Shown here: positions 36,028-55,979 of the stretch, piece after piece
Layout: every line of letters starts with the position of its first letter
Numbering within the stretch: the stretch's first letter is position 1
Sequence record: MT446407.1
Length of the DNA: 64,000 nucleotides
Reading direction: 5' to 3' (one strand)
DNA from: Escherichia virus TH34
Notes under the pieces: model-generated
Told to the model about the DNA's origin: nothing
Seen by the model: the letters and a program-made list of their open reading frames with translations, nothing else
The model's database searches: none
Translations under genes and position numbers: made by a program

Positions 36028-36270
36028 ATGTTGTCTATCGAAGATTTGATCAGTCGTGGAATGACCGAACAAAAAGAACCTCTGATTGTTGGTTCTCGTA
36101 AAGCTATTAACCAACTCTGTGAAGAGTTTGGAATCACAAACAAGAGAATGATTGGTAATCAGTTCTCTGCAATTGTCACCTTCCTTAAACGAGGTGATAA
36201 ATATTCAATGGAATGTGTTGAGCGTATCATCGCAATTGCACAAGAAGATAAGGGAGTAACAACTCTGTGA
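36028..36270 (+). CDS. hypothetical small protein
   Basis: 80-aa ORF. Confidence 0.4.
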   Translation: MLSIEDLISRGMTEQKEPLIVGSRKAINQLCEEFGITNKRMIGNQFSAIVTFLKRGDKYSMECVERIIAIAQEDKGVTTL

Positions 36271-41480: not shown

Positions 41481-41485
41481 CCAAG

Positions 41486-41677
41486 ATGAAAGAAGAAAAA
41501 GCTACTTACTTAGCTATTGGTTTTGTAGTTGGGGCATTTGCTATGGGAGTATTTATATCTAACGTTGGTCCAGATTCTAGCGTTAAGATTGAGACGAGAA
41601 GAGCCGCTTGTGAAATAAATCTCCCTCGTAATCAGGTCTGTGTAATGCAGTTTGTCCCTAAATCGGTTGACAGATAA
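41486..41677 (+). CDS. small membrane protein
   Basis: 63 aa with one TM segment (YLAIGFVVGAFAMGVFI). Confidence 0.4.
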   Translation: MKEEKATYLAIGFVVGAFAMGVFISNVGPDSSVKIETRRAACEINLPRNQVCVMQFVPKSVDR

Positions 41678-41889
41678 TGGAGTTTGGAACAATGAAAAGA
41701 CGTTGGGTAGTTCGTATTCACTGGAGCAGTGGTACAGAGTCAATGGGTATTAGGAATACCCGTCAAGAAGCTCGCGCTCATAAGAAGTTCTTGTTAAGTT
41801 GTGAAAGCACAATTAATAAGATCACTATCCACAAAGCTCAAGACTTTAAATCAGGTCGTTTCTATATCAGCGGAAAGGTACATTACTAA
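41677..41889 (+). CDS. TRQEAR-family small protein, paralog 1
   Basis: 70 aa; W..R..W....G....NTRQEARAHKK ... ending ...Y; shared with 41889 and 43752 ORFs. Confidence 0.45.
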   Translation: MEFGTMKRRWVVRIHWSSGTESMGIRNTRQEARAHKKFLLSCESTINKITIHKAQDFKSGRFYISGKVHY

Positions 41890-42104
41890 TGGATAAATTA
41901 TGGGCAGTTCGTACTAAATGGGCTAACAAAGCTCTTGGTGGTGATTGTATTCAATTATTCAACACAAGACAAGAGGCTCGTCTTGCTAAGAAAACTATAA
42001 AAGCTACAAAAGCTTTAGGAATCGCTGAAAAGGTGGAGATTCATCGTTGGATTGAAAATATCCAGAACAGTGCTGGATTCATATCCAGCAAGGTTTATTA
42101 CTAG
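41889..42104 (+). CDS. TRQEAR-family small protein, paralog 2
   Basis: 71 aa; WAVRTKW...NTRQEARLAKK. Confidence 0.45.
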   Translation: MDKLWAVRTKWANKALGGDCIQLFNTRQEARLAKKTIKATKALGIAEKVEIHRWIENIQNSAGFISSKVYY

Positions 42105-42156
42105 TTGGTAGTAGATATGATAACTCTCAAATGTATATACAGTATAAGAATATTGT

Positions 42157-46665: not shown

Positions 46666-47403
46666 ATGAATCGCAGAGAAACTCGTAGAGAAGCACGGAA
46701 AGCAGCTCGTCGTGGTGAACAGGTGACTAATAAAGGTAAACGTGAGTATCAAGAAGTTGTTCTCGCTAAGCCTGTAGTTCCTCAGAATCAGTTTCAATCT
46801 GAACTGCTCAATGCTATCAAGACTAAACAAGTAGTCTTTACGGATGCTCCTGCTGGATGTGGTAAGACTTATGTTATCACAACAACTGTTATTGATGCTC
46901 TGAAAAGTGGGAAGATTCAAAAGATCATCCTAAGCCGTCCTGCTGTTGGTATGGGTAATTCACTTGGGTTACTTCCCGGTGGGTTGCGTGAGAAGTTCGA
47001 ACCATACCTGATGCCAATCGTTGATGTTATCACTCAGCGTTACGGTAAAGGCTTCTACGAGTGTCAAATTGGTAATGGTAACATTGAGTTCGTACCTCTG
47101 GAATACCTCCGTGGTCGTTCATTCAATGACGCTATTGTGATTGTTGATGAGTTCCAGAACACTACTCCTGATGAAGCATATTCAATCATGACCCGTCTTG
47201 GTGAAACCTCTCAGATGTTCTGTATGGGTGATACTAACCAGCATGACATGCGTGGTGAGAGTGGTTTGGAATGGGCTACTGACTTCATTGATCGTCATGA
47301 CTTATTTGAGTTTGCTGCTTTGGTTGACGGTGAGTCAGATGATATTGTTCGTTCAGGTTTCTGTAAAGCTATTGTTAAAGCAATGGAATCTGAAAAATCC
47401 TAA
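46666..47403 (+). CDS. phoH: PhoH-like ATPase
   Basis: 245 aa; Walker A DAPAGCGKTYV and ILSRPAVGMGNSLGLLPGGLREKFEPYL matching the PhoH core. Confidence 0.85.
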   Translation: MNRRETRREARKAARRGEQVTNKGKREYQEVVLAKPVVPQNQFQSELLNAIKTKQVVFTDAPAGCGKTYVITTTVIDALKSGKIQKIILSRPAVGMGNSLGLLPGGLREKFEPYLMPIVDVITQRYGKGFYECQIGNGNIEFVPLEYLRGRSFNDAIVIVDEFQNTTPDEAYSIMTRLGETSQMFCMGDTNQHDMRGESGLEWATDFIDRHDLFEFAALVDGESDDIVRSGFCKAIVKAMESEKS

Positions 47404-52684: not shown

Positions 52685-52827
52685 AAGGTTTAAAGTCTGG
52701 CTAGACGAAGGAGCTGAATATCCTGAAAGTTCTGGCTGGAGAGTGATTCTGGAAACAGATGATAGGGAAGAGGCTGAAACGAAAGCTGAATCCTTCAACT
52801 ACTCATATTACGAGGACACGTACGAGA

Positions 52828-53448
52828 ATGGCTGAAGTTTACTTTGCAGGTGATGGTCACCTAGGCCATCGTAACATCTGTAATTTTAGAAAGAAGTTTA
52901 GCAGTATTGAAGAACATGACAAAGCTATCCTAGCAGCTTTTGACCATGTTACTAAACGTGATAAAACTTTCTTTACAGGTGATTGGGTGTTTGAGAGATA
53001 TGCACTTGATGTTATCGCTGAAGTAAAAGGAGAGAAACATCTTGTCCTAGGAAACCATGACAGATTAGAACTTCTCCCTGATATGATGAAAGTCTTTAGA
53101 CACATCAGTGGTGATTATAAATACAAAGAGTTTTGGGTAACTCATATTCCTATTCACTCTGATGAAATGAGAGGAAAGTATAATATCTATGCTCATACTC
53201 ATAACTCTACTATTAAAGATTGGAGATACTTTTGTACTTCTATGGAACAAATTGATTATAGAGCTGTGTCTCTGCAAGAGATTAGAAAAGAACTGGAAAG
53301 TAGGAAAGAGTGGGTAGCTTCTTTATTACAAAAAGATTATCCAATTACCAGCGAAGTACAAGAGATGTTAAGCAAGCAAGCTGAATCTAACTTACCTTTT
53401 CAGAGAACAGTAGAACAAACTAGCTTTAAAGGTCTTTTAGAATGGTAG
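52828..53448 (+). CDS. calcineurin-like metallophosphoesterase
   Basis: about 206 aa from ATG 52828; motifs YFAGDGHLGH, GDW and LGNHD. Confidence 0.65.
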   Translation: MAEVYFAGDGHLGHRNICNFRKKFSSIEEHDKAILAAFDHVTKRDKTFFTGDWVFERYALDVIAEVKGEKHLVLGNHDRLELLPDMMKVFRHISGDYKYKEFWVTHIPIHSDEMRGKYNIYAHTHNSTIKDWRYFCTSMEQIDYRAVSLQEIRKELESRKEWVASLLQKDYPITSEVQEMLSKQAESNLPFQRTVEQTSFKGLLEW

Positions 53449-53459
53449 AAGTTATTGTT

Positions 53460-53790
53460 TTTAAGTTAAGTTAATTAGTTTTCTTTTGATTTTAATAGAG
53501 AATCAAAGTCCTAGGAGTCCTCAACCTAAATCAAGGATTTCCTTAATTCTCTATTTTTATCTCGCAGGTGTCTCCTGCCCTTCGGTACTTGCAAGGGTTA
53601 CGATGATTGCCCAATATACAAGCCTGCAATAGCTTTACTAGCTATACCATATATACATTACTACTTACTATTATCTACTACCAAAAAGGTTATAGTATAA
53701 TAGAACCTTATCTGTATAGGTGTAATGTATATAGTATACCAACCGCTCAAAGAGAGCAACAATCTTGAATTTATATAAGGAAATATTAAT
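53460..53790. promoter_or_regulatory. structured AT-rich intergenic region (candidate replication origin or phage-specific promoter)
   Basis: inverted repeat tagagaat...attctcta around palindrome tcctagga (53506-53554); GC hairpin ctcgcaggtgtctcctgcccttcgg; iterated tacta/tatag words; TATAAT at 53696. Confidence 0.3.
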
Positions 53791-54531
53791 ATGTCTATGA
53801 TCCCTGAACTGTCTGTATCCCGTAAATCCAACTACGATGTAATCCCTGATGGCGAGTACGAAGCACGCATTGTTCGTGTAGTAGGTTTAGGTGTTCACAA
53901 TCGTGACCCTTGGATTGACCCTAAGACCAAAGCAGTTACTCCTAAGAACCCAGCTTTCCGTATGGACTTGGCATTTGAACTGATTGGTGTTGATGCTACT
54001 GGCACAGATAATGATGGTAAGGCATTGGACCCACGTCCTGCTTGTCAGTTTAAATCCTTCGATGTAAACCCACGAGCTAAGAACTCTGGTATTCTGAACC
54101 TAATTAAAATGATCGACCCAAGTGTTCAAGCACTGAAAGGTGATTTGGGTTGGTTCAAAGATATGCTGCTTGGTCAGCCTGTCAACATTCTGGTTAACTC
54201 TTACACCAACAAAGCTGGTGAGAAGAAAAACTCTATCAAGAGCATCACTCCAATCCCAACTAAGTATCGTGATGCTGTAGGTGCTCCTCGTAGTGAGTTG
54301 ATCTTCTTCGAACCGTATGCTGAAACTGACGCTAACTTGGCTGCTTATCAAGCTATGTTTCCATTCCAACGTAACCTTCTGACCCAAGCTAATGATGCTA
54401 AAAACATCCCTCTGGCTGGTCGTGAAGTTACTCGCGCTTCTGACACTGAACAGAAAGACGCGACTCCAAGTATCCCTACTATTAATGAAGAGCCGCAATC
54501 TACCTTTGAAGAAGATGACAGCCCTTTCTAA
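53791..54531 (+). CDS. single-stranded DNA-binding protein (T7 gp2.5-like)
   Basis: 246 aa; ITPIPTKYRDAVGAP resembles the gp2.5 core as recalled; acidic C-terminal tail ending FEEDDSPF. Confidence 0.55.
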   Translation: MSMIPELSVSRKSNYDVIPDGEYEARIVRVVGLGVHNRDPWIDPKTKAVTPKNPAFRMDLAFELIGVDATGTDNDGKALDPRPACQFKSFDVNPRAKNSGILNLIKMIDPSVQALKGDLGWFKDMLLGQPVNILVNSYTNKAGEKKNSIKSITPIPTKYRDAVGAPRSELIFFEPYAETDANLAAYQAMFPFQRNLLTQANDAKNIPLAGREVTRASDTEQKDATPSIPTINEEPQSTFEEDDSPF

Positions 54532-54552: not shown

Positions 54553-54578
54553 TTAGCCACCTTCGGGTGGCTTTTTTC
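54553..54578 (+). terminator. rho-independent terminator
   Basis: tagccacc-ttcg-ggtggctt followed by ttttcg. Confidence 0.6.
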
Positions 54579-55328: not shown

Positions 55329-55979
55329 ATGAAGAAGAAGACAACACCCACACGCTATCGTATTCATGGCATTCCTATTAAATATTATCCAACCTTCGAT
55401 GAATTCTATCGAGAGAACTGGAAAGTTGTGCATCGCTATTTTATGTATGACATTAAAGATTATCACGAAGCAGAGGATGTTGCTCAGGAAGTATTACTGA
55501 ACGCTTGGCGTTTTGTGTTTGCAAAGCAAGAAGAACTTCTGCTCGCTGATGAAAAAGATATTGAACACATGACTTATCGTGTTAAGAATATCATCTGGTC
55601 TATTCGTTCTAACCGTCAGACAGTTGGAGATCGACGTATCTACTCTATTCCAGAGGCTGATATGTTTAGACCTCCTGAGATGAACTCATGGGAAAGTCCT
55701 TTAGAGATTGCGATGGATAAGCATGACTCTACTGGAGACCCCTTCTTGGAATCTAGAATCTTTTTCTTCTTCCAAGACTTAAGTGATATTATGGATACCA
55801 AGAAAATGGCAAGCATGTTCTCTATGCTCTTCCTTGGAATACCTCACGATCACATCCAGCAAGAGCTGGGAATTTCACACGGAACTTTCTATCGCCGATA
55901 TGCAGAGAATCGTGATCTGTACGAAGCTGTAGTAGAGAAGCACTTTGATAAAGAAGATCTTCAAGGGATGATTCAATAA
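55329..55979 (+). CDS. phage-encoded ECF-like sigma factor
   Basis: 216 aa; region-2-like [20 protein letters not shown] and C-terminal HTH-like [19 protein letters not shown]. Confidence 0.55.

Follow-up and report, generated by a model that had tools for sequence, protein, structure and literature searches.

Promoters read by the phage sigma factor gp36

Phage phiEco32 is a model for the re-programming of host RNA polymerase by a phage sigma factor, gp36, together with the co-factor gp79, and its six published gp36 promoters all serve protein-coding genes. These promoters, reported as experimentally detected, lie ahead of genes 6, 13, 26, 40, 58 and 68 (PMC4281155, PMC4331800, PMC8948821 Table S3) and have in common the element tAATGTAtA, which sits 6-8 nt upstream of the start site (PMC4281155). 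Cryo-electron microscopy (cryo-EM) of the gp79-gp36 open complex, solved on promoter P68, numbers the AATG of this element as -14 to -11, with -14A to -11G contacting the gp36 N-terminal domain, and cryo-EM and mutagenesis of promoter P68 found that -37G and -34A contact the C-terminal domain and are required for activity (PMC12276001). Here we describe the non-coding spacer upstream of the gene-40 orthologue in Escherichia virus TH34 (record MT446407.1), analysed within a 64,000-nucleotide stretch that we call the window. We consider it somewhat better than an even proposition that this spacer serves a phiEco32-like phage as a transcription-control module, made up of the known promoter P40, an antisense promoter that we name anti40, and the non-coding RNA (ncRNA) belonging to it. 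More tentatively, and with slightly less than even confidence, we propose that phiEco32-like phages carry an unrecognised ncRNA family that is transcribed by the phage sigma factor from a seventh, antisense promoter and consists of a near-invariant scaffold into which unrelated cassettes have been swapped.

The spacer can be described in one line:

53449..53790: non-coding spacer of 342 bp between a phosphoesterase gene and the gene-40 orthologue, defined from the open reading frame (ORF) list and kept in 98 phiEco32-like records

Region 53300-54000 matches 98 phage records, all of them phiEco32-like podoviruses of Escherichia/Shigella (Gordonclarkvirinae). The best matches are phages Bas88 and TH43 with 98.7% identity, and phiEco32 itself is 85% identical. 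A first-pass annotation made from the letters of the DNA had taken the spacer for a candidate replication origin or phage-specific promoter ahead of a gene for a gp2.5-like single-stranded DNA-binding protein (SSB). The promoter reading is correct, and the promoter in question is already known as P40. All of the repeats that the annotation described are present: the nested inverted repeat TAGAGAAT...TCCTAGGA...ATTCTCTA within arms 53494-53506 and 53543-53555, the GC hairpin GCAGG-TGTCT-CCTGC at 53564-53578, and the TACTA and TATAG words, which are mostly parts of promoters. The annotation's view of the spacer as non-coding is borne out by frame-breaking insertions and deletions (indels) among relatives. 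What is new here is a probable antisense promoter, together with a hyperconserved, modular ncRNA or DNA element.

Two divergent gp36-type promoters

Conservation was measured across 24 distinct relatives as the mean pairwise difference per segment. The promoter elements are as follows:

53652..53660, minus strand: anti40 -10-type element TAATGTATA (-15 to -7), an exact match, invariant in the 24 relatives
53672..53684, minus strand: anti40 -35-type element TTGGTAGTAGATA (-39 to -27), 11 nt upstream of the -10 element
53723..53731, plus strand: P40 -10-type element TAATGTATA, the exact motif, orthologous to phiEco32 P40 and to SU10 position 36247

We identify 53723-53731 with P40 because the motif, the position upstream of gene 40, and the SU10 promoter table, which gives the orthologous spacer with the same promoter sequence and the leader CCGCTCAAAGAGAGCAACAATC (PMC4281155 Table S2), all agree. 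The element is invariant in the 24 relatives and sits 68 nt ahead of the gene-40 start codon, a location syntenic with phiEco32 phi32_40, and the genome carries the gp36 sigma gene. The gp36-dependence of P40 is attributed to Pavlova et al. 2012 in the passages of PMC4331800, PMC8948821 and PMC4281155 that cite that study. By the published numbering of AATG as -14 to -11, transcription is predicted to start 7 nt past the last A of the element, at 53738. In the window P40 does not have the GG at -37/-36, unlike the P68-type, P58-type and antisense promoters.

On the opposite strand, about 60 bp upstream of P40, lies a second promoter of the same kind. This candidate, anti40, faces leftward against the surrounding genes, forms with P40 the only divergent pair of phage-sigma promoters in the window, and has no leftward protein-coding gene downstream of it in the ORF list. 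Its -10 element fits the extended consensus TAATGTATAtA perfectly over 11 nt (minus strand 53660-53650) and is the other arm of a perfect 12-nt inverted repeat shared with P40 (53650-53661 / 53722-53733), which the first-pass annotation did not contain and whose length is reached in 1% of dinucleotide-preserving shuffles of the spacer. The -35-type 13-mer TTGGTAGTAGATA is also found at 42105-42117, at an equal distance ahead of the P68-type AAATGTATA at 42129-42137, and it puts G at -37 and A at -34 in anti40. In 24/24 relatives TGGTAGTA and TAATGTATA are kept, and the intervening 11 nt vary in sequence but never in length. Because both elements are retained while the 11-nt spacer differs in sequence only, we read the pair as the signature of a working two-element promoter. 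In metagenome relatives with gp40 at 72-82% identity, TGGTAGT is retained along with TAATGAATA or GAATGTATT, the two elements lying 1 nt closer to each other. Applying the published AATG numbering places the predicted anti40 start at 53645 on the minus strand. Taken from these sequence features, anti40 is probably a seventh gp36 promoter, in antisense orientation.

The antisense site is absent from the published lists of the six gp36 promoters (PMC4281155, PMC4331800, PMC8948821), a comparison that does not extend to the primary mapping study, Pavlova 2012. Literature searches on this phage group found no antisense promoter and no relevant transcriptome, and the svsR paper on infection by Kuravirus turned out to be unrelated. 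When the spacer was scanned for sigma-70 promoters, no site was found on the plus strand and the minus-strand matches were at chance level. One 12-mer of the spacer recurs ahead of the P58-type promoter, at 47363-47374, and was set aside as a chance match (E = 2).

The DNA between the two promoters also differs among phages. An insertion of about 146 bp is found there in myPSH2311 and EcM-vB1 (L024 and L025, at about 651-800) and also in L006, L064 and L164; its insertion point corresponds to about 53690 of the window. It encodes a basic ORF of 47 amino acids (aa), MKFNHKYAATEKARAYVTARQSRVYKRQSPTNNSKETFVWTKPTTFR, in which the differences among three copies are all synonymous, and the ORF is for this reason probably a real small gene. 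In the phages that carry the insertion, its 3′ end gives P40 a GGTAGT -35-type element at -37.

Elsewhere in the window, the -10 region of the P68-type promoter comes close to a palindrome, its minus strand reading TACTGTATA at 42136-42144, and the 676-bp stretch around and upstream of this promoter (41481-42156) has no ORF of at least 100 aa. At 2586-2594 on the minus strand, TAATGTATT closely follows a terminator-like hairpin and precedes a ribosome-binding site (RBS); it is probably a P13-type late promoter with one mismatch.

A predicted RNA with covarying hairpins downstream of anti40

The DNA into which anti40 would read can be drawn as a series of hairpins on either side of a variable segment:

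53488..53645, minus strand: predicted antisense ncRNA, placed from promoter and structure evidence, about 150-190 nt in relatives
53629..53645, minus strand: H1, a 5′-terminal hairpin starting at the predicted +1, with four compensating versions
53584..53624, minus strand: variable cassette, at least four unrelated versions between invariant UUGCA and GAAGGGC
53564..53578, minus strand: H3, the GC hairpin GCAGG-loop-CCUGC, 100% paired in 19 sequences, with varying loop positions
53494..53555, no strand assigned: H4, the long AU-rich hairpin that the first-pass annotation called a nested inverted repeat, 3′ domain of the predicted minus-strand ncRNA

From the predicted +1, the parts follow in the order H1, invariant UUGCA, cassette, H3, an A-rich linker, and H4. 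The clearest covariation is in H1, which occurs as AUAGCU/AGCUAU, AGAGUU/AACUCU, ACAUC/GAUGU and AUCUCU/AGAGGU, with double-sided changes in 5/6 pairs. H3 shows one compensatory flip from A-U to U-A (GCUGG/CCAGC, in relative L036). H4 has a folding energy of -15.2 kcal/mol as plus-strand RNA and -20.7 kcal/mol as minus-strand RNA, and in 19/19 sequences its outer stem contains a U.G pair that forms when the minus strand is read but not when the plus strand is.

The covariation test used a structure of H1, H3 and the outer stem of H4 and an alignment of the conserved parts of 19 distinct sequences. The tested structure is 97.9% paired, and double-sided changes affect 6 pairs, of which H1 contributes 5. 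The observed covariation was reached by none of 500 shuffles, and sliding the partner columns gave 35-45% pairing. Two results favour the minus strand as the functional RNA strand. At four positions, G.U pairing lets 24 cells of the alignment pair in the minus-strand RNA alone, compared with 2 cells that pair only as plus-strand RNA. RNAalifold gave lower energies for the minus than for the plus strand, both for the full alignment (-30.9 vs -25.1) and for cassette type A (-39.1 vs -29.2).

The cassette is the part of the predicted RNA that is exchanged. Type A measures 41-42 nt, type B 68, type C 33 and type D 34. The types are spread across genera, with type B found in ECBP2 (Suseptimavirus) as well as in MN05 and myPSH2311 (Kuravirus), and this distribution implies horizontal exchange. 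Type C cassettes have compensatory changes of their own (L031 vs L036).

Two small ORFs of 48 and 53 aa in the spacer, one of which is annotated in UKE3, were ruled out as genes by indels of +1, +2 and -1, and the cassette versions are unrelated to one another, which further excludes coding. The deposited UKE3 coding sequence of 53 aa lies at 555-716 of L013. A long-range stem around the cassette (UUGCAGG/CCUGCGA), which appeared in several single-sequence folds, was dropped since it is not kept in L036. The region has no Rfam match at gathering thresholds, with only chance-level hits (E > 0.7), and a search of it for tRNA and transfer-messenger RNA (tmRNA) found none; the window's only tRNA and only Rfam hit is a tRNA-Arg (TCT) at 23393-23468. 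From promoter and covariation evidence together, the spacer probably holds a structured ncRNA with its own promoter, which would represent a new family outside Rfam.

A block more conserved than gene 40

Within the predicted RNA, one segment has hardly changed:

53490..53585, no strand assigned: hyperconserved block containing the long hairpin, a T-run and the GC hairpin, mean pairwise difference 0.020

Among the 24 relatives it varies in just 6 of 96 columns. The corresponding mean pairwise differences in gene 40 are 0.069, 0.039 and 0.232 for codon positions 1, 2 and 3, and those of the adjacent cassette and of the spacer between the promoters, the most variable part, are 0.23 and 0.31. The block is nearly unchanged even in the metagenome relatives with gp40 only 72-82% identical. 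When viral and metagenome contigs were scanned with 15-mers, most hits were due to chance and the block itself turned up in phiEco32-like contigs alone, each time in this context; no further copy was found elsewhere in the window or in other phage groups. More distant phages with gp40, namely 7-11, GAP52, J3S, LAh_9, Vp_R1 and metagenome relatives at 60-63%, have short spacers from which the block is absent, so that they contribute no extra covariation. Host origin or mimicry was ruled out, as no E. coli genome matched the block.

A terminator alone would not fix loop bases, as could be expected if both strands were constrained or a partner were bound. Three Logan metagenome contigs from independent assemblies (L037, L038 and L040) terminate between 34 and 200 nt upstream of the gp40 gene, which points to the spacer as a place where assemblies break; this would fit an invariant block beside a hypervariable cassette in mixed phage populations.

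On the plus strand, H4 comes right after the upstream stop codon and is followed by the conserved T-run, TTTTTATCT (53554-53562). The hairpin with its trailing UUUUUAUCU has an AU-rich stem base, and a terminator consensus scan made no call there; from its position and form, H4 with the T-run is probably a terminator or 3′-end hairpin of the upstream operon. The long hairpin also contains ATTTCCTTA (53537-53545), which is complementary to the gene-40 RBS TAAGGAAAT (53776-53784), and a minus-strand RNA would consequently hold a copy of that RBS. In phiEco32-type phages the complementarity is down to 7 nt.

Weighing the antisense RNA against other explanations

Several points weigh against an antisense RNA. 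Anti40 is a promoter predicted from sequence, and it may already have been tested and found silent, or it may have been reported. In one metagenome contig, L164 (ERZ1034915 NODE-75), the anti40 -10 element reads TAATATATA, with -11G->A, and no other anti40 copy seen is altered at one of the bases that are reported as essential. Single-sequence folds are equally good on each strand (z = -2.7), the evidence for strand asymmetry comes from four independent positions only, and the covariation is concentrated in H1, the near-invariant H4 being uninformative on both structure and functional strand. The minus-strand RNA has no hairpin-plus-U-tract terminator that would define its 3′ end. The plus-strand H4 that it would oppose is AU-rich and was passed over by the terminator scan. 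That a discrete antisense RNA accumulates is our reading of promoter matches, covarying hairpins and hyperconservation, all obtained by sequence comparison, and the function proposed for it below is a guess.

If the block acted on the plus strand only, it would be a terminator or a stability element of the 3′ untranslated region, possibly with anti-Shine-Dalgarno pairing to the gene-40 RBS in read-through RNA, and the minus-strand TAATGTATA would be non-transcribing, for example a second site for the gp36 holoenzyme that modulates P40. The conserved T-run after the hairpin, the position of the block immediately behind the upstream stop codon in all lineages, no matter which gene precedes it, the complementarity of ATTTCCTTA to the RBS, a plus-strand fold that scores as well as the minus-strand one, and a Bas88 substitution that keeps a U.G pair only in the plus fold of the inner helix all agree with this. 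However, a terminator has no need of invariant loop bases, the GC hairpin and H1 lie downstream of the T-run and would rarely be transcribed on the plus strand, and both the H1 of the Kuravirus clade and the H4 outer stem contain A.C mismatches in the plus reading that are G.U pairs in the minus reading. The shrinking of the RBS complementarity to 7 nt in phiEco32-type phages also speaks against it, as does the complete -35 element at the correct distance from the minus-strand motif, which a site present by chance or only passively would not have retained. We judge a role on the plus strand alone to be unlikely. A purely recombinational use of the block, in which it is kept for homologous exchange of flanking segments among co-infecting phages and has no RNA or protein-binding role, would suit its place between two mosaic segments, the varied upstream genes and the four cassette types, whose distributions cross genera, and the breaking of several metagenome assemblies here. 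Recombination alone does not maintain near-identity where gp40 stands at 72-82% aa identity, and such a linker neither predicts the compensatory change in the GC hairpin nor explains the complete promoter next to it; we regard it as very improbable indeed.

A replication origin, the other proposal of the first-pass annotation, would work in the style of T7 or T4, with divergent phage promoters flanking an AT-rich unwinding element and transcripts that activate or prime bidirectional synthesis. The AT-richness noted in that annotation holds at 53640-53740 (25-28% GC), between the window's only divergent pair of phage-sigma promoters, but not at 53560-53600 (57% GC). An origin would also give the leftward promoter, which serves no leftward gene, the non-coding role that it needs, and it would fit a phage whose replication genes are of the T7 style, with an SSB-like gp40 and, in a relative, DNA_pol_A close to gene 40. 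The searchable literature describes no origin for phages of this group. Yet the AT-rich DNA is the least conserved part of the spacer (0.31), tolerates the 146-bp insertion with its small gene in some relatives, and lies upstream of both predicted starts, with 40-57% GC downstream of the antisense start. Among the repeated words only the anti40 -35 element is kept, not a set of conserved iterons, and there is no DnaA box with at most one mismatch in 53449-53790. The GC skew, a weak test of origins in phages, shows a local dip over gene 40 and then turns positive again with no lasting switch at 53.5 kb, and it reaches its extremes where gene orientation changes, near 12 kb and 58.5 kb. Neither iterons, DnaA boxes, skew nor the placement of the AT-rich DNA supports an origin, and the covarying 5′ hairpin and hyperconserved hairpin loops would be left unexplained by it; we consider this explanation distinctly unlikely.

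Gene 40 and its surroundings

The remaining features of the locus are as follows:

52759-53448: phosphoesterase gene, 229 aa, left neighbour of the spacer
53745..53757, plus strand: gene-40 leader stem-loop GCUC-AAAGA-GAGC, with compensatory versions
53776..53784, plus strand: gene-40 ribosome-binding region TAAGGAAAT, invariant in the alignment
53791..54531, plus strand: gene-40 orthologue, 246 aa, phrog_6599, function unassigned there
54555-54572: terminator after gene 40
55329-55979: phage sigma factor gene, gp36 orthologue, phrog_1740, just downstream of gene 40

The leader stem-loop has compensating versions in three relatives: GUUC/GAAC (L036), GUCC/GGAC (L039) and GUUCA/UGAAC (L041). 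In SU7, a deposited 'promoter' (L001 1982-2013) covers the gene-40 RBS and start codon and misfits the comparative evidence. The gp40 protein has no Pfam match, and a Foldseek search against the PDB returned weak SSB-type hits only; judged from its modelled structure, gp40 is probably an OB-fold protein with an acidic tail, an SSB. The type with which it was compared, the T7 gp2.5 SSB, combines an OB fold with an acidic C-terminal tail whose last residue is aromatic. Across gene 40 and its leader (53500-54499 of the window) the GC skew is about -0.08, compared with +0.1 to +0.2 in neighbours on the same strand.

A proposed mechanism and its implications

In the mechanism that we propose, host RNA polymerase with gp36 would read P40 from a start near 53738 rightward into gene 40, producing a short leader with the conserved stem-loop. 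Once gp36 has been made, the polymerase would fire both promoters, and transcription from anti40 would start at 53645 and run leftward to give an ncRNA of about 150-190 nt whose 5′ end is protected by a hairpin. If H4 on the plus strand is a 3′-end hairpin, the antisense RNA would be fully complementary to the 3′ ends of upstream mRNAs; it would pair perfectly with the 3′-terminal hairpin of upstream transcripts and with read-through RNA. Our guess is that the RNA acts in cis like lambda OOP, pairs with these upstream 3′ ends and thereby uncouples gene 40 from upstream transcription or alters mRNA stability. It may equally well act in trans, through the conserved scaffold and a protein partner.

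If this is true, the temporal programme of phiEco32 would gain a layer of RNA through a seventh, backward promoter and its highly conserved product, and anti40 would offer a natural second template with P68-type -35 contacts. A scaffold more tightly constrained than the second codon positions of gene 40 implies strong selection for some partner. In about 100 deposited genomes, annotation has either skipped this spacer or assigned spurious small ORFs to it. The locus also serves as a caution that AT-rich, repeat-rich DNA beside an SSB gene should not be taken as an origin.

Comparison with known systems

The plus-strand promoter has no essential difference from phiEco32 P40: it is the orthologous site, with the same TAATGTATA element in the same place upstream of gene 40. 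Anti40 compares best with phiEco32 P68, with which it has in common the 13-mer TTGGTAGTAGATA at -39 to -27, -37G, -34A and the spacing. It differs from P68 in having T rather than A at -15, which is closer to the consensus, and in facing against the neighbouring genes with no protein-coding gene downstream.

On the plus strand, H4 resembles Rho-independent terminators as a stem-loop followed by UUUUUAUCU directly after a stop codon. Unlike them it is 62 nt long, branched and AU-rich at the base, it was not called as a terminator, and it is conserved base-for-base including the loops. The likeness to phage origins lies in phage-specific promoters beside AT-rich DNA, within the early/middle part of the genome and in a phage whose replisome is T7-like. 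In the T7 primary origin (the phi1.1A/B promoters and an AT-rich region) and in T4 oriF/oriG (a middle promoter) the unwinding element is downstream of the promoter, whereas here the AT-rich DNA is upstream of both starts, is poorly conserved and accommodates an insertion of 146 bp.

The closest parallel for the predicted RNA is provided by phage cis-antisense small RNAs of the lambda OOP type. OOP is 77 nt long, sigma-70 dependent, and ends at a classic terminator. The TH34 RNA would differ in being dependent on the phage sigma factor, about twice as long and equipped with a swappable cassette, in having no visible terminator, and in showing no sequence or Rfam similarity to OOP. The two would be alike in being short RNAs made from a promoter of their own opposite a major operon, complementary to the 3′ end of an upstream message, and encoded beside replication genes.

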